Assembly (NCBI GenBank): GCA_052387955.1
Contig: JBQTIQ010000017.1
Coordinates: 8,319 to 72,318 of the forward strand
Source: Acidimicrobiia bacterium
GTDB taxonomy: Bacteria; Actinomycetota; Acidimicrobiia; Acidimicrobiales; JACDCH01
DNA: 64,000 nucleotides
Direction: 5' to 3'
Notes under the pieces: model-generated
The model's input: only the letters and a program-made list of their open reading frames with translations
Told to the model about the DNA's origin: nothing
Databases searched by the model: none
In this document: positions 3,092-61,082 of the stretch, piece after piece
Layout of the letters: every line of letters begins with the position of its first letter
Position numbering within the stretch: position 1 is the first letter of the stretch
Program-made: the position numbers and the translations under genes

Positions 3092-5059
<1,968 letters not shown>

Positions 5060-5091
5060 CTGCGGCGCTCCTTGCGCTGATGACCGGCCGG

Positions 5092-5149
5092 CCGAGCGAC
5101 CGCCAGGGAGCCGGACGGCGATGGGGTACGGGGGCGCAGCCCCCGAGCG
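5092..5149 (-). repeat. Family-A intergenic repeat copy in the sdhC-sdhA gap
   Basis: The minus strand reads cgctcgggggctgcgcccccgtaccccatcgccgtccggctccctggcggtcgctcgg. The core palindrome is GGGGGC-TGC-GCCCCC. It matches copies at 11.9, 20.7, 24.1, 36.6, 42.4 and 61.0 kb. Confidence 0.85.
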
Positions 5150-5156
5150 AAGACGC

Positions 5157-6014
5157 TCATCGATCGTCTTCTTCAGCTTCTGCCGCCACGATGGCTGCCG
5201 CCTTCTGGCACGGCACCCCGTTGTTGTTGGTCTCCTGGCAGACCTTGACCCGCTCGGCGTAGTCGAAGTCGATGATGCGGACCTGCACCGCGGCCGGGAA
5301 CCCGAGGTTCGCCCCGGCCACGCCGAGGGCGAAGAGGCGGGCCACCCACACCCGCCAACGGTTGAAGCGGGGCCGGTTCCACCCGAGCGTCTGTAGGAAC
5401 GAGTAGGCCCCGTGGAACATGTGGATGCCGAGGGCCATGTTGGCCGTCTGGTACAGCCCGGCGATGGCCGGCCGCCGGAAGCTGTTCACCATGTTGTTGA
5501 AGGGGTCGCCCCGAACGAAGGAGCCGTTGGCCGTCCCCCACGTCAGGTCAGCCAGGTGGAACACCAGGTAGAGGATCACGATGATGCCCGTGTACCGCAT
5601 CGTCCGCGATGCCCAGTTGGCCGCCACCATGTCGCGCTGGCTGACGTAGCGCTGGGGCCGGGCCCGGTGGTTCATCTTGGTGAGCTGGTACGCCGACATC
5701 ATGTGGAGGGCGAAGGCGATCATCAGCAGGCCGCGGATGCCCCACAGGATCCACGTGCGGGGCGCGAACGGGACCAGCAGGTTGCGCAGCCACTCGCCGT
5801 AGTGATTGAGGTCGTCGGCGCCGAGGAGGGCCTTGGCGTTGCCGAGCATGTGGAACAGCACGAACAGCAGCAGGAACAGCCCGCTGATGGCCATGACCCA
5901 CTTCTTGCCGACGGCCGAGCGGTAGAACTCGACCGCGTACCACCGGCTGTGGCGGACCGGACCGTTCACGACCGGGGTCGGCGCGCTGCTCAAGTCCAGT
6001 TGCGTCGCGCTCAC
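5157..6014 (-). CDS. sdhC: Succinate dehydrogenase cytochrome b subunit (b558-type, five-helix)
   Basis: ORF 5157..6014 with a GTG start. It is a multi-helix membrane protein with conserved His residues ([28 protein letters not shown]). It lies directly upstream of sdhA-sdhB on the same strand. Confidence 0.85.
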
Positions 6015-11911: not shown

Positions 11912-12030
11912 ATCTGCTCGGTCCCGAGGAGGCTTGACGTCGTGACAAGTTCCTGGACCGAGCAGATGCCGACCGAGCGACCGCCACGGAGCCGGGCGGC
12001 GATGGGGGCCGGGGGGCGCAGCCCCCCAGC
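11908..12030 (-). repeat. 123-bp composite repeat (hairpin module plus family-A core), copy 1
   Basis: ctagatctgctcggtcccgaggaggcttgacgtcgtgacaagttcctggaccgagcagatgccgaccgagcgaccgccacggagccgggcggcgatgggggccggggggcgcagccccccagc. By hand it aligns without gaps to the reverse complement of 42369-42491 (about 110/123 identical). It contains the VWA gene stop codon TAG 11909-11911. Confidence 0.9.
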
Positions 12031-12101
12031 CAATGGCCGAGCGTCTGTCGGCCGACGTCAGCGGGCTGACGCCAGGGGCCGGGTGAACCGAGGCCCGGCC
12101 C

Positions 12102-20586: not shown

Positions 20587-20733
20587 CGGTGACGGCGGCG
20601 GCTGGGTCGAAGCCCGGCCGCCTCCTCATCGAGGACCCTAAGCAGACGGGGCTGTGCTCAACCAGTAGGTCAACGTGTGACCATCCCGTGGACAGTGCCG
20701 CCTCGTCTGTGGACAGAGCGGCCAGGCCGTTCA

Positions 20734-20941
20734 TGCTCGGGGGCTGCGCCCCCGGGCCCCATCGTCGCCCGGCTCGCTAGCGCTCGCCCGGTCGACCGGT
20801 CACTGGCGGGCGGAGCGAGCGACGGTGGACCCATGACCGCGCCTGCTCGGGGGCTGCGCCCCCGGGCCCCATCGTCGCCCGGCTCGCTGGCGCTCGCCCG
20901 GTCGACCGGTCACTGGCGGGCGGAGCGAGCGATGGTGGACC
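20734..20941 (+). repeat. Tandem duplication (period 110 bp) of a long family-A repeat unit
   Basis: The 98-nt unit tgctcgggggctgcgcccccgggccccatcgtcgcccggctcgctRgcgctcgcccggtcgaccggtcactggcgggcggagcgagcgaYggtggacc occurs at 20734-20831 and 20844-20941. The two copies differ at 2 positions and are separated by a 12-nt spacer. Confidence 0.95.
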
Positions 20942-20969
20942 AAGTGACCGTCCCGCCGGCCCGGTCCGC

Positions 20970-23657: not shown

Positions 23658-24167
23658 ATGGCAGAGCCCGACTGGCTGGACGCCGACCAGCAGCGGGCGT
23701 GGCGGGCCTATCTGCGCTCCCACGCCGAGTTGGTGGCGGCGCTGAACCGGCGCCTGGTCGCGGCCGACGGCCTGTCGGTGGCCGACTACGAGGTACTCGT
23801 CCATCTCACCGAGGCCCCCGGTCAGCGCCTCCGCCCCTTCGAGCTGGCCGACCTCATGGCGTGGGAGAAGAGCCGGCTGTCGCATCACCTGGCCCGGATG
23901 CGAGGCCGCGGGCTGGTCCGTCGTCAGCAGTGCGACAGCGATGGCCGCGGCGCCTGGACCGTGTGCACCGCCGCCGGTCGGAGGGCCATGGCCGGCGCCG
24001 CCACCGGCCATGTCGCCGACGTCCGTCGCTGGTTCGTCGAGCCGGTCGGCCAGCGTGACCTGGCCATCCTGGGGGACCTCAGCGAACGGGTCCTGGCTGC
24101 CATCGCCGACGACGAGCTAGCTGGGGGGCTGGGCCCCCCCGGCCCCCGTCGCCGCCCGGCTCCCTAG
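23658..24167 (+). CDS. MarR-family transcriptional regulator
   Basis: ORF 23658..24167. The winged-HTH region is GLSVADYEVLVHLTEAPGQRLRPFELADLMAWEKSRLSHHLARMRGRGLVRR. The last ~16 codons and the stop lie inside a family-A repeat. Confidence 0.85.
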   Translation: MAEPDWLDADQQRAWRAYLRSHAELVAALNRRLVAADGLSVADYEVLVHLTEAPGQRLRPFELADLMAWEKSRLSHHLARMRGRGLVRRQQCDSDGRGAWTVCTAAGRRAMAGAATGHVADVRRWFVEPVGQRDLAILGDLSERVLAAIADDELAGGLGPPGPRRRPAP

Positions 24168-24186
24168 CGGTCGCTCGGTCGGCATC
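24117..24186 (+). repeat. Family-A repeat copy in the convergent MarR/pirin gap
   Basis: ctagctggggggctgggcccccccggcccccgtcgccgcccggctccctagcggtcgctcggtcggcatc closely parallels 42367-42434. Confidence 0.8.
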
Positions 24187-24190
24187 GAGC

Positions 24191-25144
24191 TCAGCCTCGG
24201 TAAGGGCGCAGCCCGTCGACGGGGACACGGCCGAGGCGGCCGGCGTGGAAGTCGTCGAACGCCTGTTGCAGCTCGGCGCGGGTGGTCATCACGAACGGGC
24301 CGTAGGCGGCGACGGGTTCGCCGATGCGCCGGCCCCCGAGCAGGAGCACCTCGAGCGCGCCGGTGGCGTGCGCCCCGACCTCGATGGTGTCGCCGGGGCC
24401 GAAGCGGGCCAGCTGGCCCGACGTGATCGGCTGCCCGTCGGTGCCGACGGTGCCGTCGCCAGCCAGGGCATAGGCCAGGGCATTGAAGCTGGCCGGCCAC
24501 CGCAGTCGCAGCCGGGCGCCGGGGGAGACGGTCGCATGGGCGACGGTGATGGGGGTGTGGGTGGCGCCCGGGCCGATGTGGCCGGCGAGGTCGCCGGCGA
24601 TGAGCCGGACGAGGGCCCCGCCGTCGGCTGAGGACAGCAGGGTGACCTGGTCGCCCTCGATGCTCTGGTAGCGGGGGGCGGCCATCTTGTCCCTGGCCGG
24701 CAGGTTGACCCACAGCTGGACGCCGTGGAACAGCCCTCCGCTCAGCACCAGTTCCTCGGGCGGCGTCTCGATGTGGAGGATCCCGCCGCCGGCGGTCATC
24801 CACTGCGTGCCGCCGTTGGTGATGAGCCCGCCACCGCCGTGGGAATCCTGGTGCTGGAACGTGCCGTCGATCATGTAGGTGACGGTCTCGAAGCCGCGGT
24901 GCGGGTGCCAGTCGGTCCCCTTGGGTTCGCCCGGGGCGTAGTCGACCTCGCCCATCTGGTCCATGTGGATGAAGGGGTCGAGGTCGGCCTTCGACACGCC
25001 GGCGAACGCCCTCCGCACCGGGAACCCCTCGCCCTCGACGGCCCGAGGGGCGGTGAGAACGCCGACGACGGGCCGCGTCGCGGCCTCGGGGCCGGGCCGG
25101 TCGACCTTGGGCAGGGTGAGCGTGTCGGCGGTGATGGCAGGCAT
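24191..25144 (-). CDS. Pirin-family protein (bicupin)
   Basis: This is the 3' part of ORF 24191..25330. I set the start at ATG 25144, preceded by AGGAGG. It has FPVRRAF, DPFIHMDQMG and the metal motif HPHRGFETVTYMIDG. Confidence 0.9.
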   Translation of the reverse strand: MPAITADTLTLPKVDRPGPEAATRPVVGVLTAPRAVEGEGFPVRRAFAGVSKADLDPFIHMDQMGEVDYAPGEPKGTDWHPHRGFETVTYMIDGTFQHQDSHGGGGLITNGGTQWMTAGGGILHIETPPEELVLSGGLFHGVQLWVNLPARDKMAAPRYQSIEGDQVTLLSSADGGALVRLIAGDLAGHIGPGATHTPITVAHATVSPGARLRLRWPASFNALAYALAGDGTVGTDGQPITSGQLARFGPGDTIEVGAHATGALEVLLLGGRRIGEPVAAYGPFVMTTRAELQQAFDDFHAGRLGRVPVDGLRPYRG

Positions 25145-28545: not shown

Positions 28546-28655
28546 GGTCCTCCTGTGGGGGCTCGCCCCACAGTCTCGCGTGCGGTCCGGGTTGCCCACG
28601 GGCGCGGGCCGGGGGATGCCGTCAACGTGACAGGATGTCCGCCGCTGCCGCCGAT

Positions 28656-28720
28656 GCGAGCGCCGGAGCGCCAGCGCAGGTGCGGCCAGGCGCGGCCTGC
28701 GCGGCCGGGGAACGCCGACG
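28656..28720 (+). repeat. Family-B intergenic repeat, copy 1
   Basis: gcgagcgccggagcgccagcgcaggtgcggccaggcgcggcctgcgcggccggggaacgccgacg. By hand it is about 85 % identical to 38822-38886. The GGCCGGGGAAC(G/A)C end also occurs at 30873-30886 and 61059-61070. Confidence 0.85.
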
Positions 28721-29757: not shown

Positions 29758-30836
29758 TCTTCGTCCTCACTTCGCTCCCTCCGCGGCGGCGAGTTCGATG
29801 GGGCAAGGACCGAGCCGTGGTCGGTGAACAGGCCAGAGGCCGGTGACGTGCCGGCCAGCGCGTCGGCACACAGGACCACGGCGGCCGCGGTATAGGTCGA
29901 GCGCTCTTCTCGGGGGAAGCGGGCGCCGTCGGGGAGCACCGTGCCGGTCCAGTAGCGGTCGTCGTCGTGGCGGTACTGAGCTGTCCACGAGAACAGGCGC
30001 TCGGCCTCGTCCCGTCGGCCGACGGCGAGGTGGGCCAGGGCGCATTCGCACGTCTCGGCCACCGTGACCCAGGGCCGGTCGGACACACAGCGCACGCCCC
30101 GGCCCTCGATGACGAAGCGGTGGTGGCGGCCCTCCAGCCGCGCCCGCCCGTCGTCGTCGCCGATCACGCCGGCCAGGACGGGGTAGTACCAGTCCATGGC
30201 CCACCGGTGCTTGGGGGCAAAGGCGTCGGGGCGTCCGACGATGGCTTCGGCCAGACGGCCGGCGGCCTGCTCCCAGTGGGGCCGCTCGTGGCCGAGACGG
30301 CGGGCGAGGGCCACGGCGCAGCGCAGGGAGTGGCAGATCGACGACGACCCCGTGAGCAGGGCGAACGACCATGGGGTGCCGTCGGCGTGCCGGGCCCAGA
30401 TGACCTCGCCCGCCGGCCGCTGCAGGCCGAGCACGAACCCGACGGCTCGCTCGACCACCGGCCACAGGGCGGCGGCGAAGCCGGGATCGTCGAACAGCAG
30501 CAGGTGATGCCACACCCCGGTGGCGACGTAGGCGCACACGTTGGCGTCGAGCCGGTCGTGCTCGACCCGGTCGGCCACGTAGTACTGGTGCCAGGCACCG
30601 TCCGGGCGCTGATGGTCGGCGAGCCAGGCGTAGGCCCGCTCGGCGTCAGCCCGCCGTCCGCCGACCGCCAGGGCCATGGCCGCCTCGACGTGGTTCCAGG
30701 GGTCGGCGTGCCCGCCCGGCACCCACGGGACCAGGCCCGAGGGCAGCTGCCACTCGGCGATGGCGTCCACCGTTCGGGCCAGCTCGGCGGAGGAGACCAC
30801 ACCACGCACCCCAGCCGATACGCCAGACGTCGTCAC
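29703..30836 (-). CDS. Prenyltransferase / squalene-hopene-cyclase-repeat ((alpha/alpha)6-barrel) family protein
   Basis: ORF 29703..30836 with a GTG start. It has repeated QW-like segments (WQLPSGLVPW, HQRPDGAWHQYY, LQRPAGEVIW). The 3' end overlaps the convergent cupredoxin gene by 55 nt. Confidence 0.65.
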   Translation of the reverse strand: MTTSGVSAGVRGVVSSAELARTVDAIAEWQLPSGLVPWVPGGHADPWNHVEAAMALAVGGRRADAERAYAWLADHQRPDGAWHQYYVADRVEHDRLDANVCAYVATGVWHHLLLFDDPGFAAALWPVVERAVGFVLGLQRPAGEVIWARHADGTPWSFALLTGSSSICHSLRCAVALARRLGHERPHWEQAAGRLAEAIVGRPDAFAPKHRWAMDWYYPVLAGVIGDDDGRARLEGRHHRFVIEGRGVRCVSDRPWVTVAETCECALAHLAVGRRDEAERLFSWTAQYRHDDDRYWTGTVLPDGARFPREERSTYTAAAVVLCADALAGTSPASGLFTDHGSVLAPSNSPPRRERSEDEDQPAVMATAMPLGSWNTQ

Positions 30837-30842
30837 CGGTCG

Positions 30843-30887
30843 CGCCCAGGCGCGGCCCTGAGCGGCCTGCGTGGCCGGGGAACGCCA
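30843..30887 (+). repeat. Family-B repeat, partial copy
   Basis: cgcccaggcgcggccctgagcggcctgcgtggccggggaacgcca shares the ccaggcgcggcc and cctgcg.ggccggggaacgcc segments with 28684-28716. Confidence 0.6.
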
Positions 30888-30900
30888 GCTAGCAACGCGT

Positions 30901-35213: not shown

Positions 35214-36566
35214 TCACGGTGCTGGCCCGGTCACGGTACCTAGTGCCCGAACCGCGGCGCGTGCACCCCTCCTACCGTCACGGATGCACGCCGGCACCCC
35301 CAGGCCGCGGAATGCGGCGCCGGCCAGCACCACCGTCGGTAGCTGTTCGGCGACATCCGATTCGACCTCGTCCACCAGGTCGAGGTGCCCCAGCCCGTAC
35401 TGGGGGAACGACCGGTCCCAGCGGCTCACCCGCACCTCGTCGGGCCGGGTGGTCACGTCCATGGTGGCGGTGAGCTCGCGGTGGACGGCGTCGACCAGGG
35501 CGCGGTCGTCGAGGCCGGCGATGCGTTCGTCGCCCAGGCGCCCGGCCGAAGCCCGTACGATGACCCGGCCGTCGTCGGGTGTGAGGTGGGGCCACTTGCT
35601 GGTGGCCCACGACACCGCGGTGACGAGCATGCCCTCGGTGCGGGGCACCAGGAAACCGCTGGCGTCGAGGGCACGGTCGACCGCCTCGGCGGAGTAGGCC
35701 AGGGTCACCACCGCCACCGACGCATAGGGCACGCTCGCCAGGCGGTCGGCAGCGGAGCGGGCGCCGGCCCGGGCCGCCAGCGGTGCGGCCAGGTGGGCGG
35801 GCAGGGCCACCACCACGGCGTCGGCGTCGAGCGCTCCCAGGTCGACGACGGGGGAACCTGTGCACACCCGGGCGCCGGCGGCGGCCAGGGCCCCGACGAG
35901 GGCGTGGACCAGTGCGCCCATGCCGCCGCGGGGGGCGTAGAAGAGCGGCGCAGCAGGATCGGAGGGCAGCTCGGCCCGCAGGGCGCCGACGAGGTCGGCG
36001 CTACGCTCGGCGGCCTCGGCCAGCCGGGGCGCCGCCGCTCGGGCCGACAGCCGGTCGCAGTCGCCGGCGTTGATCCCGCCCAGGAGCGGGTCGACCAGCC
36101 GCTCCAGCACGTCGTCGCCCAGCTGCTGGCGCACCAGGGCGCCGATGGTGATGTCGGCACCGGGAGCGAGGGGTGCCGGCGCCGGCCGGGCCGCCACCGG
36201 GCCTGGGACGATGCCCGAGGCGGCCACCGCCTCGAGGTCGGTGGGCACCCCGAGGACCAGCCCGGAGGGCAGCCGGCGCAGGGCACCGTCGCAGAAGACG
36301 TAGGCCGAACGTCGCGCCGGTGTCACCAGGTCGCCGGCGAGGCCGAGCTCCCGGCACAGGTCGACGGCCCACGGCAGCCGGGCGAGGAAGGCGTCGGCCC
36401 CCTCGTCCACGGGCCGTCCGGCGAAGGCGGTGGTGCGCACCTTGCCCCCCACCCGGCCGGCGGCCTCGTGCACGACCACCTCGACGTCGGGGGCCAGGCG
36501 GCCGAGCTCGTAGGCGGCGGCCAGGCCCGTGACCCCGCCCCCGACCACCGCCACCCGCCGGGTCAC
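35214..36566 (-). CDS. hemY: Protoporphyrinogen/coproporphyrinogen III oxidase (HemY/CgoX type, FAD)
   Basis: This is the 3' part of ORF 35214..36713. I set the start at GTG 36566 (VTRRVAVVGGGVTGLAAAYEL, a dinucleotide-binding fold at the N-terminus). It also has HEAAGRVGGKVRT and VDEGADAF. Confidence 0.85.
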   Translation of the reverse strand: MTRRVAVVGGGVTGLAAAYELGRLAPDVEVVVHEAAGRVGGKVRTTAFAGRPVDEGADAFLARLPWAVDLCRELGLAGDLVTPARRSAYVFCDGALRRLPSGLVLGVPTDLEAVAASGIVPGPVAARPAPAPLAPGADITIGALVRQQLGDDVLERLVDPLLGGINAGDCDRLSARAAAPRLAEAAERSADLVGALRAELPSDPAAPLFYAPRGGMGALVHALVGALAAAGARVCTGSPVVDLGALDADAVVVALPAHLAAPLAARAGARSAADRLASVPYASVAVVTLAYSAEAVDRALDASGFLVPRTEGMLVTAVSWATSKWPHLTPDDGRVIVRASAGRLGDERIAGLDDRALVDAVHRELTATMDVTTRPDEVRVSRWDRSFPQYGLGHLDLVDEVESDVAEQLPTVVLAGAAFRGLGVPACIRDGRRGARAAVRALGTVTGPAP

Positions 36567-36767
36567 CGGGGCACCGTCGCTTGGGGTCTCCCCCGGTGAC
36601 CCCTCGACCGGGTGAGCGCCAGCGAGCCGGGCGACGATGGGGCCCGGGGGCGCAGCCCCCGAACATGAACGGTCACCGGGACCCCGTCGCTTGTGGGCGC
36701 AGCTCCCGAGCATGAACGGTCACCGTGGCACCATCGCTCGGGCGCAGCCCGGGGCATGAACGGTCAC
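36563..36767 (-). repeat. Family-A repeat array (units of 44, 47 and 110 nt) filling the hemH-hemY gap
   Basis: The minus strand has GTGACCGTTCAT(G/T)... units beginning at 36767, 36723 and 36676. The 110-nt unit matches the 20.7-kb tandem unit (tcgaccggg.gagcgc.agcgagccgggcgacgatggggcccgggggcgcagcccccga.catgaacgg on the plus strand). Confidence 0.9.
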
Positions 36768-37681
36768 GCCATCCGCAGGCGCCCGGCGAGGGCGTCGAGG
36801 ACGATCGGGTCGGTGTTCAGGGCCCGGGTGCGGGCGAACCCGAGGCCGACCTCGTCGGCGCGTCGGGCGGCGGCGACGTCGAGGTCGTAGAGGAGCTCGA
36901 GGCCGTCGGCGGTGAACCCCTGGGGGCAGACGACGACGCCGTCGGCCCGGCCGGTGGCGGCCAGCTCGGTGATCACCTCGAGGATGTCGGGACCGCGCCA
37001 CTCGTCCCCGGTGCGTCCCGCCGACTGCCAGGCGATCCCCCAGTCGGCCCAGCGGTCGAGGCCCGCTTCGGCGCCGATGGCGGCGGCCGAGCGCGCCAGC
37101 TCGTCGGGATAGCGGTCCCCCTCGAGGACGCGCTCGGGCAGGGAGTGGGCGGTGAAGAGCACCTTGACCCGCCCGGCGGCCCCATTCCCGCCGGTGCGCC
37201 TGGCGAGCTCGGCGCGGGCCTCGGTGACGGCCGTGGCTTGGAAGCGGCGCCACTCGGGCAGGTCCCACCAGCTGCCTACCGTGGCCGCCTCGAGCCCGTG
37301 CTCGGCGGCGGCGGCCACGAGGCGGCCGGCGTACTCGCCCACCGAGCCTCGGCTGTCGTGGGGAGCGAGCACGATGCCGATCACCCGGTCGGCGCCGGCC
37401 TCCGCCACCACGGCCACGCCGTCCTCGATGAAGGGCGGGGAGTGCTTCTGGCCCGCGACCACCACGAACCCGGGGCCCAGGGCCTGGCCCACACGGTCGG
37501 CCTGGGCTTCGGTGATCCGGCGCAAGGGGGAGGTACCGCCGATGGCGTCGTAGCGCGAGCGCAGCTCGGCCAGCAGCTCGGCGGTGGGGGGCCGGCCCCG
37601 GCGGATGTGGGTGTAGTAGCGCTCGAGGTCGCCGGGTGAGACCGGCGAGCCGTAGGCCATCACCACCACGCCGGTCGTCAC
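36764..37681 (-). CDS. hemH: Ferrochelatase (coproporphyrin ferrochelatase type)
   Basis: This is the 3' part of ORF 36764..38074. I set the start at GTG 37681 (ATG 37660 is an alternative). It has the blocks VVMAYGSP, YDAIGG.SPL, LFTAHSLP and the C-terminal GFTADGLELLYDLD. Confidence 0.85.
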   Translation of the reverse strand: MTTGVVVMAYGSPVSPGDLERYYTHIRRGRPPTAELLAELRSRYDAIGGTSPLRRITEAQADRVGQALGPGFVVVAGQKHSPPFIEDGVAVVAEAGADRVIGIVLAPHDSRGSVGEYAGRLVAAAAEHGLEAATVGSWWDLPEWRRFQATAVTEARAELARRTGGNGAAGRVKVLFTAHSLPERVLEGDRYPDELARSAAAIGAEAGLDRWADWGIAWQSAGRTGDEWRGPDILEVITELAATGRADGVVVCPQGFTADGLELLYDLDVAAARRADEVGLGFARTRALNTDPIVLDALAGRLRMA

Positions 37682-37724
37682 GGCCGCCTCGCGGCCCTCG
37701 GCGATGCCGGCCCGGCCGCCACGC

Positions 37725-38801
37725 TCACCGTGACGTGCGGCCTTCGGTGTGTACCAGATCGACCAGCCGAGCGAGGGTGTCGGGGTCGGTCTCGGGCAGC
37801 ACGCCGTGGCCGAGGTTGAACACGTAGTTGGGTTCCCCCCCGCCCTCGGCCAGCACGTCGCGGGCCGCCGCTTCGACCGCCGCCCACGGGGCCAGGCACA
37901 CCGCCGGGTCGAGGTTGCCCTGCAGCGCGGTGCCGGGACGCACGGCGTCGACCCGCTGGCGGGCGAGTGACAGCGGCGTGCGCCAGTCGACGCCCACGAC
38001 GTCGGCGCCGGCCTCGGCGAAGAGCCCGAGCAGCTCACCGGTGCAGACACCGAAGTGGGCCCGGGGCACGCCAAGGTCGGCCACGGCGGCGAACACCTTG
38101 GCCGACGCCGGCAGCACCTGGCGCCGGTAGTCGGCCGGGGTCAACGCCCCCGCCCAGGAATCGAACAGCTGCACCGCCTGGGCGCCGCTGTCGACCTGGG
38201 ACCGCAGCGAGGCGATGGCCAGGTCGGCCAACCGGTCGAGCAGCTTCTCCCACAGTCCCGGATCGGTGCGCATCAGCGCCTTGGTGCGGGCGTAGACCCG
38301 TGAGGGGGCACCCTCGATCAGGTACGAGGCCACGGTGAAGGGGGCTCCGGCGAACCCGATCAGGGCTACATCGGGGCCGAGCGACTCGGCCACCAGTGAC
38401 ACCGTCTCGAGCACATAGGGAGTGTCGGCATCGGGGTCGAGCGGCCGCAGCCGGTCGAGGTCGGCGGCCGAGCGGAACGGCGCCTCCACCACCGGGCCGG
38501 TGCCAGGGGCGATGTCGACCCCGAAGCCGATGGCGGCGACCGGCACCACGATGTCGGAATAGACGATGGCGGCGTCCACGCCGTAGCGCCGTACCGGCTG
38601 AAGGGTGATCTCCGCTGCCAGTTCCGGTTTGCGGATGGCGTCGAGGATCGAGCCGTCGCCCCGCACCGCCCGGTACTCGGGCAGCGCCCGGCCGGCCTGG
38701 CGCATGAACCACACCGGCACCCGCCCGTGGGGCTCGCCCCGGCAAGCGGCCAGGAACGGTGCGGTGACCGCGTGCTCGATGGAGCCCGGCCGTTCGGTCA
38801 C
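37725..38801 (-). CDS. hemE: Uroporphyrinogen decarboxylase
   Basis: ORF 37725..38801 with a GTG start. It has [30 protein letters not shown], and the rest is family-typical. Confidence 0.95.
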
Positions 38802-38821
38802 GGGCCTCCCCGTCCACCGGT

Positions 38822-38886
38822 ACGAGCGCCGGAGCGCCAGCGCATGCGGGGCCAGACCCCGCCTGCGGGGCCGGGGAACACCGACA
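38822..38886 (+). repeat. Family-B intergenic repeat, copy 2
   Basis: acgagcgccggagcgccagcgcatgcggggccagaccccgcctgcggggccggggaacaccgaca lies in the patatin-hemE gap. Confidence 0.85.
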
Positions 38887-38892
38887 ACACGT

Positions 38893-39858
38893 TCACGCCG
38901 CCAGCCGCGACACCAGGTTGGCGGCGGCGGGGTGCTCGAGGCGCTGGATCGTGCTGCGCCGGGCCTGTTCGGCCACCACCCGGCGCCGCTTGGGGTTCAT
39001 GCTGTTGGCCCCCATCACCACCGTGTCCTCGGCGGTCGGCTCGAGCAGCAGCACCGGCGTACCCGAGGCCCGCACCTGGCGGAGCTCCCGGTCCAGGGCC
39101 CACGACGCCAGCGCCCGACTGGCCATGTTGGGGATCGGCCGCAACGCCGAGCGAGCCGACGACATCGTCGACACCACCACGGCCAGGTCGAGCCCGATAC
39201 CGGCCACGAGGTCGGCGTTTGAAGGGGAGTGGGCGCCGCCGTCGACGTAGGTCCGGCCGCCGATGGCCACCGGGCGGAAGAATCCGGGGATGGCCGACGA
39301 GGCTTCCACCGCGGTGCCCACGTCGGGGGTGCTGGCGGGGTCGAGCGTGTCCCGGCCGAAGACCACCCGGGCGCCGTCGCCCAGGCGCAGGGCGCAGATC
39401 CACAAGGCCTCGTCGGGCCACGAGCGCCCTCCGTAGAGCCCTCGCACCCGTTCGCCGATGGGCTCGGTGGGCACCGACCCGGCCGGCATCAGCCCGGCCA
39501 GGGCGATCATCGGCCGAGGGTTCCACGGCGGGAACAGGGCCGCTGCCAGTTGGGGGGCAGCTGGCATCAACGCCCGGGGGATCAGCGGGTAGTCGGACCA
39601 GGACGGGCCTTCGTCGTCCCCCACGAGGCGCTGGCCCGCCGCCGACAGCGGCGTCCCGGTGGCCCGGGCGAAGTGGTCGGCCGGGGAAAGGCCGGCGCGC
39701 AGGGCTGCCCCGGCCACCGAGCCGGCCGACGTTCCCACCACCAGATCGGCGGCGCGGGCATCCCAGCCGGTGACCTCGGCCAACGCGGCCAGCGCACCGG
39801 CGTGGTACGCACCCCCGACCAGGCCGCCGGCGCCGAGTACGAGCCCCACGTACGGCAC
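38893..39858 (-). CDS. Patatin-like phospholipase
   Basis: These are the last 321 codons of the artefactually long ORF 38893..41655. I set the start at GTG 39858. It has the oxyanion motif GAGGLVGG, the nucleophile motif GTSAG and the Asp motif YVDGGAHS. Confidence 0.85.
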
Positions 39859-42368: not shown

Positions 42369-42491
42369 GCTGGGGGGCTGCGCTCCCCGGCCCCCATCCC
42401 CGCCCGGCTCCCTGGCGGTTGCTCGGTCGGTATCTGCTCGGCCCCGGGACCTGTGACAACGTCATGCCTTCTCGGGACCGAGCAGATCTAG
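42369..42491 (+). repeat. 123-bp composite repeat (family-A core plus hairpin module), copy 2
   Basis: This is the reverse complement of 11908-12030 at about 89 % identity by hand alignment. The hairpin arms atctgctcggccccggg / ctcgggaccgagcagat lie at 42432-42448 / 42471-42487. CAGATCTAG occurs at both 42361-42369 and 42483-42491. Confidence 0.9.
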
Positions 42492-49176: not shown

Positions 49177-51720
49177 CTAGTCGGCCTGGATGGCCTGGAG
49201 GATGTCGAGCCGGGCCGCCCGACGGGCAGGGCGCACCGCGGCCAGGATGCCGGCAACGGCACCGGCGACGACCAGACCGATGAGGCCGCCGAAGGGCAGC
49301 GTGTACTGCACCCCCTCGCTGGACGCCGCCTGCACCAGCGCCCAACTGAAGAACAGGCCGATGAACACGCCGCCGAGGGTGCCGAACAGGGCGATGATCA
49401 CCGACTCCCATCGGATCGACGAGCGCACCTGCCGGCGGGCCATACCGACCGCCCGCAGGAGGCCGAGCTCGCGGGTGCGTTCGTTGATCGACAACGACAG
49501 CGTGTTGGCGATGCCCATCAGCGAGATCACGATGGCCAGGGCGAGCATGGCATAGACCAGGCCCAGGACCTGATTGATCGAGTTCGACTGGGTGGTCCGG
49601 AACTCCTCGCGGTCCTGCAGCTCGGAGCCGGCGGCCAGCTGGTCGACCAGCGGCTTGATCGACGCTCGGACCGTGTCGACGTCGGTGCCCTCGGCGACCT
49701 TTACCGACACGAACGTGTCCAGGTTCTCCTGGGAATGGGGCTCCCATGCCGACAGGCCGAGCACGTAGTTGCCGACGATGTCGTCGTTGTCGTAGTGGGC
49801 CGCCACCGTGAACGTCGCCGTGGCCCCGTCGACGAAGCGCACCGGGAGCTTGGTGCCGACGGGCCAGCCCTTGTCGTCGGCCACGTCACAATTGACGGCC
49901 AGGTCGGTGGGGCCGAGCGTGCCGGCGCCGGCCGAGAAGCCGAGGTCGAAGACCTGGCCCAGCGACGCCGGGTCGGCGATGGCTACGCCCTTGGGCTCGC
50001 CGTCGACCTCCATGAGCCCGAATCGCAGCCCCGAGACTGCCGCAACCCCGGGGACCTGTCGGGTCCGGGCCGCCAGCTCGGGGGTGATGCCGCCGATGCC
50101 GAACGTGCCCGAGTCCACCACCAGGTCGCCGGCGAACGAACGGTCGATGGCCTCGTTGATGGTCGTCTTGAGCGACGCCGCGAACACGGTGAACAGCGCG
50201 GCGACACCGACGCCGACCATGAGCGCGGCGGCGGTTCCTGACGTCCGCCGGGGGTTGCGCACCGCGTTCTCGCGGGCCAGGGAACCGGTCACGCCCTTGA
50301 GCCGGGGTAGGGGAGACCCGAGCAGGCGGCTCACCGGGCCGGCGGCGACCGGCCCCAGTACCACCACACCGAGCAGCGTCAGCACCGCGCCGGCTCCGGC
50401 GCCGAGCACGGCGTTGTCGCCCTTGCCGATCACCGCCACCAACACGTTGCCGACGCCCAGGGCCACAACCACCAGGCCGACGATGATGCGGCCCTTCGAC
50501 GCCACGGCCCTCTCGAAGGCGACGTCGCCGATGGCGGCGATGGGCGGGATGCGGGTTGCCTTGAGCGCCGGCGCCACCCCCGCCACCAGCGTCACCACGA
50601 CCCCGACCAGCATGGAGATGACGGCGATACGGGGCCCGAAGGCCAGGCCTGACGCGGGGAGGCCGAGGCCGAACCCGGCCAGCATTGCCTTGAGCCCGAC
50701 CGCGATGCCGAACCCGGCCACGATGCCGAGGGCGGACCCGATCACGCCCACGGCGAGGGCCTCGGCCAGCACGGAACCCATGACCTGGCGCCGCGACGCT
50801 CCCAGCGCCCGTAGCAGGGCCATCTCCCGCGCCCGTTGGGAGACGATGATCGAGAAGGTGTTGTAGATGCTGAACACAGCTACCGCCACGGCGATGCCGG
50901 CGAAGATGGTGAGGAACACGTTGAAGAACGACAGGAACTGCGACTGGATGTCGTCGAGCTGTTCGGTGGTCAGGGCCTCGCCCGTGATGGCCTCGGTACC
51001 CGCCGGCAGGAGGGCGCTGATCCGATCGGTGAGCTCCTGCTCCGGTACGCCCGGGGCGGCGGCGGCGATGATGGCGTCGACCCGGCCGGCCTGGCCGGCG
51101 ATCTCGCGCTCGGCCACCTCGGTGGTGAAGGCGGCGTAGGTGACGCCCCCGGCGCTGTCCTCCTCGCCATAGGTGGCGATGCCCACGACGGTGGCCCCCA
51201 CGGTGCGGCTGAGCTGGATGGTCACGCGCTCACCGAGGGCAACATCACCTTCGTCGGCGGCGCCCTTGTTGATCACCACCTCGCCCTCGGTGGCGGGGGG
51301 ACGGCCCTCGACGATGCGGTAGGGGTTGAGCCCGGGCTGGTCGATCCAGTTCTCGGCCAGCGTGGGCGGGCCCTGCCCGGGCGAGCCCAGCGCCTCGCCC
51401 TCGGTGTTGACGATGCGGCCGTTGCCGGTGATGTACACGCTGGCTTCGGCGACGCCGTCGACGCCGGCGACGGCGTCGAACAACGACGCGTCGATCCGGC
51501 CCCGGGCCACGAAGCCGTCGACCTCGAGGCGGCTGTCCGCTCTCACGTAACTGTCGACGCCGGCGTTGGCGTTGGTGAACAGCTCGTCGAAGGTTTCCTC
51601 CAGCGTGGCGGTGAGCGTGAGCACCCCACTCAGGAACCCGACTCCGAGTACCACCGCCAGCAGCGTCGAGGCCAGCCGGCGCTTGTGGGCCAACAGGTTC
51701 TTGAGCGTGACCCGGCGCAC
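49177..51720 (-). CDS. ABC transporter permease, MacB/FtsX type with two FtsX domains
   Basis: ORF 49177..51720 with a GTG start. It begins MRRVTLKNLLAHKRRLASTLLAVVLGVGFLSG. It has two 4-TM FtsX modules, each followed or preceded by a large extracytoplasmic domain. Confidence 0.9.
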   Translation of the reverse strand: MRRVTLKNLLAHKRRLASTLLAVVLGVGFLSGVLTLTATLEETFDELFTNANAGVDSYVRADSRLEVDGFVARGRIDASLFDAVAGVDGVAEASVYITGNGRIVNTEGEALGSPGQGPPTLAENWIDQPGLNPYRIVEGRPPATEGEVVINKGAADEGDVALGERVTIQLSRTVGATVVGIATYGEEDSAGGVTYAAFTTEVAEREIAGQAGRVDAIIAAAAPGVPEQELTDRISALLPAGTEAITGEALTTEQLDDIQSQFLSFFNVFLTIFAGIAVAVAVFSIYNTFSIIVSQRAREMALLRALGASRRQVMGSVLAEALAVGVIGSALGIVAGFGIAVGLKAMLAGFGLGLPASGLAFGPRIAVISMLVGVVVTLVAGVAPALKATRIPPIAAIGDVAFERAVASKGRIIVGLVVVALGVGNVLVAVIGKGDNAVLGAGAGAVLTLLGVVVLGPVAAGPVSRLLGSPLPRLKGVTGSLARENAVRNPRRTSGTAAALMVGVGVAALFTVFAASLKTTINEAIDRSFAGDLVVDSGTFGIGGITPELAARTRQVPGVAAVSGLRFGLMEVDGEPKGVAIADPASLGQVFDLGFSAGAGTLGPTDLAVNCDVADDKGWPVGTKLPVRFVDGATATFTVAAHYDNDDIVGNYVLGLSAWEPHSQENLDTFVSVKVAEGTDVDTVRASIKPLVDQLAAGSELQDREEFRTTQSNSINQVLGLVYAMLALAIVISLMGIANTLSLSINERTRELGLLRAVGMARRQVRSSIRWESVIIALFGTLGGVFIGLFFSWALVQAASSEGVQYTLPFGGLIGLVVAGAVAGILAAVRPARRAARLDILQAIQAD

Positions 51721-51730
51721 TATCTTCCCC

Positions 51731-51775
51731 GGTGGGGCCGCGCCCCACGCCCATCGTCGCCAGGCGGGCTGACGG
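51731..51775 (+). repeat. Degenerate family-A core in the ABC ATPase-permease gap (opposite orientation to the genes)
   Basis: ggtggggccgcgccccacgcccatcgtcgccaggcgggctgacgg compares with the consensus cgggggctgcgcccccgggccccatcgtcgcccggctcgctgg. Confidence 0.5.
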
Positions 51776-51813
51776 CGGCGCCGTCGGCCTGAAGCGCTCG
51801 CTTCGCTCGCACC

Positions 51814-52590: not shown

Positions 52591-52728
52591 GCTGGTTCGC
52601 TGCGGGCTGGGGGCCCTTCGCTCATGTGTCGGCTGCTCGCTGGCGGTCGCGACGCCGACGCTGGTTCGCTGCGGGCTGGGGGCCCTTCGCTCACGTGTCG
52701 GCTGCTCCCTGGCGGTCGCGACGCCGAC
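52591..52728 (+). repeat. Tandem 69-bp repeat x2 (family-A-related variant)
   Basis: gctggttcgctgcgggctgggggcccttcgctcaYgtgtcggctgctcSctggcggtcgcgacgccgac occurs at 52591-52659 and 52660-52728, with 2 mismatches. Confidence 0.95.
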
Positions 52729-60938: not shown

Positions 60939-60974
60939 CGCGACGGACGATAGCGGCCGTTCGGGCCTGTCGCC

Positions 60975-61075
60975 GAGGCGAGCGCCAGCGAGCCCGGCGA
61001 CGATGGGGCCCGCGGGCGCAGCCCCCGAGCATGAAACGGTCGAGCCCCAGCCGGCGTGGCCGGGGAACGCGACAA
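60975..61075 (-). repeat. Composite family-B end plus family-A core in the HMG-CoA lyase / STAS gap
   Basis: The minus strand reads ttgtcgcgttccccggccacgccggctggggctcgaccgtttcatgctcgggggctgcgcccgcgggccccatcgtcgccgggctcgctggcgctcgcctcgg. Confidence 0.85.
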
Positions 61076-61082
61076 GAAGGCT

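Follow-up and report, generated by a model that had tools for sequence, protein, structure and literature searches.

The closest described counterparts of the array examined here are MIRUs (mycobacterial interspersed repetitive units; Supply et al. 1997), of which PMC12548453 and PMC3184786 give summaries. They are units of 40–100 bp, transcribed polycistronically, with direct repeats of four nucleotides where a site is filled, terminal repeats that are imperfect, internal GC-rich inverted repeats and open reading frames (ORFs) that overlap the adjacent genes (PMC3184786), an arrangement suggested to minimise their impact on expression (PMC12548453). MIRUs have long been seen as a mycobacterial curiosity, of use mostly for strain typing, and their movement and their tolerance inside operons are still a matter of hypothesis. 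In this study, we examined a 64,000-nt stretch (the window) of contig JBQTIQ010000017.1, which has a G+C content of 72% and comes from an NCBI metagenome-assembled genome (MAG) labelled Acidimicrobiia bacterium, and focused on a 201-nt repeat array between the haem biosynthesis genes hemH and hemY. By its organisation, set against the published descriptions of MIRUs, the element would work like a MIRU in a different host class, the Acidimicrobiia. We consider it probable that the array is a MIRU-like insertion at an ancestral GTGA overlap, and that it has been kept as a relay in which ribosomes would stop and restart on their way to hemY.

An earlier reading of this DNA, the first-pass annotation, had called the array MIRU-like in organisation, which our comparison supports, since every reviewed MIRU feature open to testing is present. 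Units are about 40–110 nt long and occur both dispersed and in tandem; the window has seven loci, and a scan of one genome per species yielded at least 114 stretches. They sit, not universally, at gene starts and intercistronic joints and in the orientation of the genes (hemH–hemY, sdhC–sdhA and more than 20 loci elsewhere), with a unit ORF that meets the downstream gene in a −4-nt coupled joint and overlaps the upstream stop. Direct repeats flank them, and the hemH/hemY site is empty in two relatives (L002 and L004). They carry internal GC-rich inverted repeats in the form of three hairpins, and size variants arise through internal deletions. Copy number may also differ between related genomes, as judged from a single pair of orthologous loci in two species-level genomes, in which short-read collapse is possible: upstream of a DapB-like gene (253/262 aa identical, 97%), L006 has one unit of the 92-nt element at 1226–1326 and L039 two at 1198–1390. 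The differences from MIRUs lie in the direct repeat, which is about 7 nt here (RTGACCG) and a tetranucleotide there; in the host, which is not Mycobacterium; in the 3′ hairpin, which here includes the duplicated start codon; and in the core, which is here also used in reverse orientation and in arrays of period 3n that read as one ORF.

Miniature inverted-repeat transposable elements such as the Rickettsia palindromic elements, together with RUP/BOX and Correia elements, resemble the present family in that they are small and non-autonomous, fold stably and lie between direct repeats, and some of them keep the reading frame and are hence tolerated (PMC3184786). In contrast, they fuse in frame into proteins or sit in untranslated regions, and do not form separate mini-ORFs with overlapping stops and starts. 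The principle of a frame-keeping insertion is already known from MIRUs, and the present family extends it beyond the mycobacteria; a literature search found no description of such repeats in Acidimicrobiia. At the level of the family the MIRU-like interpretation is supported, and a functional relay is likely, judging from the features set out below.

The hemH–hemY array

All features of the array lie on the minus strand. From the hemH stop (TGA 36766–36764) to the hemY start (GTG 36566) the spacer measures 197 nt, and three mini-ORFs of 15, 16 and 37 codons link the two genes, chained GTGA to GTGA. The units measure 44, 47 and 110 nt from joint to joint, each a 3n+2 length. Each of the three begins GTGACCGTTCATG, is open in the frame of its GTG and ends in a TGA that overlaps the next GTG. 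When we re-read the minus strand, the coordinates, peptides, stop/start overlaps, unit lengths and spacer length given in the first-pass annotation proved exact. It had further claimed that every joint carries the same motif, which holds for three of the four (CGGTGACC) and fails at the first, which reads GCGTGACC; GTGACC is common to all four.

Unit 1 (36724–36767, 44 nt) opens with GTG 36767 on the hemH stop, and its mini-ORF (VTVHAPGCARAMVPR; 36720–36767) closes at the stop 36722–36720. It is internally deleted, retaining only a head, a weak form of hairpin H1 (36739–36751) and a tail. Unit 2 (36677–36723, 47 nt; mini-ORF 2, VTVHARELRPQATGSR, 36673–36723, stop 36675–36673) is also internally deleted, and its head resembles the heads of repeat-family members in other genomes. 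Unit 3 (36567–36676, 110 nt) is a full-length family member whose mini-ORF (VTVHVRGLRPRAPSSPGSLALTRSRGHRGRPQATVPR, 37 codons; 36563–36676) ends at TGA 36565–36563, overlapping the hemY GTG. Relative to the long unit, units 1 and 2 are head-plus-tail derivatives lacking 66 and 63 nt, both multiples of three. A consensus scan predicted no sigma-70-like promoter or intrinsic terminator in 35900–39300, and none of the four joints, inspected by eye, has a canonical GGAGG less than about 20 nt away.

The identities of both genes, as first proposed for this haem gene string, are borne out by Pfam. HemH (ferrochelatase/CpfC; 36764–37681, 305 aa; PF00762) starts at GTG 37681, the true start by alignment with HemH of the relative L004, whose N-terminus it matches residue for residue, beginning with residue 1 (MTTGVV.MAYG). 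HemY, a CgoX-type protoporphyrinogen/coproporphyrinogen oxidase (35214–36566, 450 aa; amine oxidase, PF01593/PF13450), starts at GTG 36566 as the earlier reading had it: the NCBI protein of the same MAG is identical, with 450 aa from the same GTG, and homologues of 437–450 aa begin at the same Rossmann motif.

Comparison with relatives indicates how the array came to lie where it does. Where hemY is about 65% identical, hemE, hemH and hemY overlap directly by 4 nt; the hemH/hemY joint of L004 reads CGATGACCCGC / CAGCGATGACCCGCCGC, with a HemY beginning MTRRIAVVGGG, and that of L002, equally free of an insert, reads GCATGAGCCGCC. Excising 36567–36767 in silico joins ...ATGGC directly to GTGACCCGG and leaves a direct GTGA overlap. 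Because hemH and hemY of the relatives overlap directly by 4 nt (ATGA), the array is, by this comparison, an insertion at what would be a translationally coupled joint. The closest relative, L001 (88% identity), has the same hemY start (CCGGTGACCC), and upstream of it, up to the contig end 63 nt away, a different repeat family runs open-framed into the same GTGA. With the joint filled by another family in L001, it looks like a recurrent target.

A repeat family bound to frame and start codons

The core of unit 3, about 60 nt long (TCGGGGGCTGCGCCCCCGGGCCCCATCGTCGCCCGGCTCGCTGGCGCTC), is common to six other places in the window. In the one-genome-per-species scan with the core pattern, nearly all matches fell in Acidimicrobiia, Acidimicrobiales or Ilumatobacteraceae MAGs; family counts given here refer to the matches listed. 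The best-defined subfamily is a 92-nt, three-hairpin unit between two copies of RTGACCG, with the consensus ATGACCG-N8-CTCGGGGGCTGCGCCCCCG-NN-CCCCATCGTCGCCCGGCTCCCTGGCGGTCGC-N-CGGTCGACCGGTCAYGAGCTGCGCTC followed by ATGACCG. RTGA stands on both sides of the core in 33 of the 128 hits with enough flank, and an open mini-ORF links the two joints in 31 of these 33. Joint-to-joint lengths fall into eight classes (68, 80, 89, 92, 95, 101, 110 and 119 nt), all of them 3n+2. Among the 17 tandem-array periods, 13 are 3n+2 (47, 83, 89, 92, 95, 110, 119), four are 3n (81, 93, 96, 111) and none is 3n+1. In three of the four 3n arrays the opposite strand forms one continuous ORF, which runs into a real gene through ATGA; the ORF in L016 also starts GTGA on the stop of the upstream gene. 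Lengths of 3n+2 and 3n would hold a ribosome in register with the downstream start, which 3n+1 would not.

Variation between copies shows no codon-position bias, with mean entropies of 0.57, 0.38 and 0.58 for positions 1, 2 and 3. We rejected peptide-level conservation of the mini-ORFs for lack of a third-position bias; constraint therefore acts on frame and structure, not on the peptide.

The family is further tied to start codons. At more than 20 loci the 3′ RTG of the element, whose distance from the core is fixed, is the start of a long ORF that shows coding-type codon bias; the genes so opened are mutually unrelated (for example a DapB-like gene, MTVRVGVFGAGG, and others beginning VTVPLIMGV, MTADDWIAAF and MTLIAVLDYGIGN). 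For the 5′ RTG there are two situations. Either a real gene lies upstream and the RTG overlaps its stop (L022, L035, L061, L074, L087 and L050, and the hemH and sdhC sites of the window), or the RTG is preceded by a native Shine-Dalgarno motif (L074, GAAGGAGG; L027, AGGAGG; L117, AAGGAG). The two flanking copies covary, being ATG/ATG at 17 loci, GTG/GTG at six and mixed at one, and the match extends further in L061 (ACT/ACT) and in L097 and L099 (ACCC/ACCC). Such covarying flanks are the pattern expected of a target-site duplication of about 7 nt, and would fit movement by transposition.

An alignment of 24 sequences supports three hairpins: 94% of cells pair, against 35–45% when the partners are slid, compensatory changes occur at nine pairs, and none of 500 shuffles reached the observed covariation. 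H1 (CGGGGGC-TGC-GCCCCCG; 36645–36661 in unit 3) is the invariant core of the family. The H2 region (GTCGCCCGGCTCGCTGGCGCTCACCCGGTCGA; 36604–36635 in unit 3) shows compensatory changes in the family alignment, its pair 54:64 being CG in 12 sequences and GC in 10. In H3 (CGGTCAYGAGS...SCTCRTGACCG), 18 sequences have CG and six have GC at one of the pairs, and the 3′ arm is the stop/start joint itself. Unit 3 has an H3-like stem (36560–36603) in both the minimum-free-energy and the centroid fold, with its left arm GGGGTCACCGGGG at 36591–36603 and its right arm CCCCGGTGACCC at 36560–36571. The right arm holds the stop of mini-ORF 3 and the hemY GTG, so that the predicted 12-bp stem buries the hemY start; the homologous H3 of the 92-nt subfamily is conserved with covariation. 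These hairpins may act as RNA or as single-stranded DNA.

Matches to the core pattern also occur in four genomes labelled Acidobacteriota, Streptomyces poonensis, Thermoplasmata and Rhodobacterales (L074, L013, L028 and L066), of which L074, from the Acidobacteriota genome, is a complete and typical 92-nt element. Mis-binning, transfer or chance could account for these matches outside Acidimicrobiia.

The proposed relay and its alternatives

We propose that the family inserts at, or duplicates, RTGACC start-codon motifs, and that a copy would survive at a coupled joint only if the downstream gene were still translated. Downstream translation having to stay intact, units would be stop-free in one frame and either 3n+2 long, for stop and restart at RTGA, or 3n long, for read-through. 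At the haem locus, ribosomes ending hemH would reinitiate at GTG 36767 and translate mini-ORFs 1 to 3 one after another; termination at the last TGA would unfold the H3-like stem over the hemY GTG and allow reinitiation on hemY. Such a relay would combine the scanning/reinitiation and the RNA-unfolding models, both reviewed in PMC12548453. It resembles the leader ORFs of bicistronic designs, in which the stop of a short ORF overlaps the next start, delivers ribosomes and melts structure (PMC12548453); those are engineered, work in a single step and are neither repeats nor mobile elements. Continuous translation would also shield the operon from polarity. Three successive restarts probably cost some efficiency, and for this reason we speculate that the copy number of units could tune hemY relative to hemH.

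Several observations weigh against a relay, and most of them suit the view that it is an unused by-product. In this DNA, TGA stops are often overlapped by a start codon (ATG/GTG/TTG): across about 120 family loci, such an overlap is seen at around half or more of first stops in any frame. We discarded RTGA joints alone as evidence, since they are frequent in every frame. With the end joints kept, a complete chain appeared in some 1–3% of shuffled spacers (0.7% mononucleotide, 2.7% dinucleotide). A tandem duplication spanning a GTGA joint copies the joint automatically, which means that the three units are not independent observations. In 58% of elements, an ORF across the element is connected with a coding-like ORF by a chain of −4 overlaps, against a background of 36% at random non-coding positions, and we did not rely on this statistic, the enrichment being modest. 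No such chain is present in 50 of 120 element regions, and some copies sit between convergent genes. Runs of GGTG/GGGG lie 5–10 nt upstream of the joints and are possible weak ribosome-binding sites. The folding energy of the whole region was no better than that of shuffles (z = −1.3 and −0.4) and unexceptional for its G+C; because of this, we based structural claims solely on the stems backed by covariation. Neither a close relative nor another assembly of the array turned up in two metagenome scans: the pattern for the 5′ DNA of hemY had no match, and the best match to the HemY protein was 59% identical. Finally, an array at 20727–20950 on the plus strand, two 110-nt units 96% alike, lies between convergent genes downstream of an M48 peptidase gene; its internal joint is ATGA, its last spacing is 111 nt, and the chain is out of phase. 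Because of this array, the relay is not intrinsic to every copy of the element; the drift itself looks like relaxed constraint where no gene follows.

Since shuffled spacers yield chains and the units are related by duplication, the hemH–hemY locus taken alone is suggestive, not decisive, evidence for a relay beyond chance, and the case is carried by the evidence from the family as a whole. That evidence bears directly on the by-product explanation, which we judge unlikely. It holds that the array is a selfish or slippage-derived repeat, that its joints and frames follow from duplicating a unit with a native joint in stop-poor, GC-rich DNA, and that hemY is translated independently, from a weak G-rich site or without a Shine-Dalgarno sequence. 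Besides the background frequencies and the G-rich runs just given, the presence of family copies at sites where a relay is impossible speaks for it. It does not readily explain, however, why all eight single-unit length classes are 3n+2 and no tandem period is 3n+1, why the internal deletions are multiples of three, or why, in more than 20 unrelated genes, a real start codon adjoins the element at one fixed position. Drift out of phase is seen in the sole clearly non-operonic array of the window, and independent translation of hemY would have to begin at a GTG buried in the predicted 12-bp stem.

The second alternative, which we regard as quite improbable, assigns the array a structural role. 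Its GC-rich hairpins would act like those of repetitive extragenic palindromic (REP) sequences or bacterial interspersed mosaic elements (BIMEs), as an mRNA stabiliser or a processing or pause site that sets the hemH:hemY ratio, with the open frames serving only to avert Rho-dependent polarity. The conservation of three hairpins with compensatory changes agrees with this, as does a copy variation that tracks stems rather than codon positions, peptide conservation not being seen. Like REP/BIME sequences with their associated RAYT transposases and the IS200/IS605-type elements, the family consists of short GC-rich hairpin repeats in high copy, often clustered, with a seemingly sequence-specific choice of target, and H1 resembles a REP. 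IS200/IS605 elements recognise their targets under the guidance of hairpins. REPs, in contrast, are palindromes of 20–40 nt that typically sit at gene 3′ ends or between convergent genes, for the most part outside translated sequence, without a frame rule or abutment to start codons, and the present element is larger. No RAYT or TnpA gene was found here, no search aimed at one having been made. A structural role thus leaves the 3n+2/3n rule, the start-codon abutment and the covarying direct repeats unexplained. No U-tract terminator is present, and Rfam gave no match at gathering score for the whole window and none at E ≤ 1 for 36450–36850. Such a role is also compatible with the relay and need not replace it.

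It is very improbable that part of the array codes for the N-terminus of HemY, as a 49-residue extension from ATG 36713 in unit 2 (peptide MLGSCAHKRRGPGD...). The hemY frame is indeed open up to that ATG (ORF 35214–36713), which is the sole point in favour. We rejected the extended protein on homologue lengths and starts: homologues of 437–450 aa and the 450-aa NCBI form begin at the Rossmann motif, and the 88% relative has the same start, VT(R/Q)RVAVVGGG, with unrelated sequence upstream. Moreover, the extension would consist of repeat sequence, which does not code for protein where it occurs elsewhere. As a separate matter, with ATG 36711–36713 (minus strand) in frame with hemY and no stop between, a gene caller could yield a 499-aa HemY with a repeat-derived N-terminus.

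The least credible explanation of all is that short-read assembly of the MAG created the array artificially: the source is a MAG for whose species we found no independent assembly, nor any match to its exact HemY protein in the contig index, but the units share only about 15 consecutive identical bases, too few for a k-mer loop, the order of hemH then hemY is that of all relatives, and equivalent arrays occur in many independent assemblies, on contigs of up to 4.9 Mb.

Returning to the stop/restart relay, an abundant second family that reaches the same solution in another actinobacterial class suggests that the principle is general and not limited to mycobacteria. It is possible, and we put it forward tentatively, that this is an undescribed, class-wide mobile family that targets start codons, in which the pairing of the 3′ hairpin with RTGACCG hints at hairpin-guided insertion into single strands and the arrays may be evolvable translational rheostats. 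If true, the movement of MIRU-type elements and the way in which they locate start codons could be explained by comparative genomics, and every extra stop/restart step would be expected to lower downstream output, here that of hemY relative to hemH. The family offers hundreds of independent insertions with length classes, covarying repeats and hairpins, on which the hypotheses of frame preservation and targeting are testable. The proportions in which the products of an operon are made, the haem enzymes being an example, may be tuned by the number of tandem copies. There is also a practical side for annotation: spacers in these genomes can be fully translated, and starts beside repeats are easily miscalled.

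Other bridged joints and copies in the window

The hemH–hemY array had been put forward as the clearest example of this organisation in the window, a ranking that is open to question, as it is not the sole example and the relay between sdhC and sdhA is arguably cleaner. There, one unit (5056–5160, minus strand), of the family to which unit 3 belongs, forms a 34-codon mini-ORF between the Sdh_cyt gene and sdhA, and both of its joints are ATGA. In contrast to hemY, sdhA is preceded by a good AAGGAG, which lies within the element, 7 nt upstream of the ATG.

The haem operon, on the minus strand, runs from hemE (uroporphyrinogen decarboxylase; 37725–38801, start GTG 38801; PF01208) through hemH and hemY to a downstream sortase gene, and two of its other joints are bridged as well. 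Between hemE and hemH, a 47-nt spacer holds a 16-codon mini-ORF (37678–37728, minus strand) that meets the hemE stop and the hemH start in GTGA; we detected no relatives of this spacer among the repeat-family loci compared. In relatives, hemE and hemH overlap directly by 4 nt (TTGA); hemE–hemH and hemH–hemY are both plain 4-nt overlaps, and in one relative so is the joint between the patatin-like gene and hemE. In the window, that last joint carries an element of a second repeat family (38798–38896, minus strand) with a 32-codon mini-ORF, again with GTGA at the stop of the patatin-like gene and at the hemE start. Further copies of this second family (GTCGGYGTTCCCCGGCC.CGCAGGC...) lie at 28639–28719 and 30809–30889, with a partial one near 61040–61080, and it is the family found upstream of hemY in the 88% relative L001. 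A partial relay architecture stands upstream of a STAS-domain gene near 60940.

Related sequence is also used in antisense. At 52591–52728, a tandem repeat of two 69-nt copies (97% identical, period 3n) is related to the antisense core, and its minus strand is one ORF ending in an ATGA joint on a gene that starts MSSQS. Two minus-strand genes flank a degenerate antisense copy of the core at about 51700–51810 (minus strand). The mini-ORF of this copy (VRAKRALQADGAAVSPPGDDGRGARPHRGR) closes with TAGTG, where its stop shares 1 nt with the start of a gene that begins VRRVTLKNLLAHKRRLASTLLAV and looks FtsX-like by eye. A composite subfamily, at 11962–12100 (minus strand), 24124–24213 (plus strand) and 42372–42490 (plus strand), joins the core to a long 3′ module in which there is a strong inverted repeat (ATCTGCTCGG...CCGAGCAGATCTAG). 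Two or more of the three sites are found between convergent genes or at the 3′ ends of genes, and their own 3′ end lacks a relay joint.

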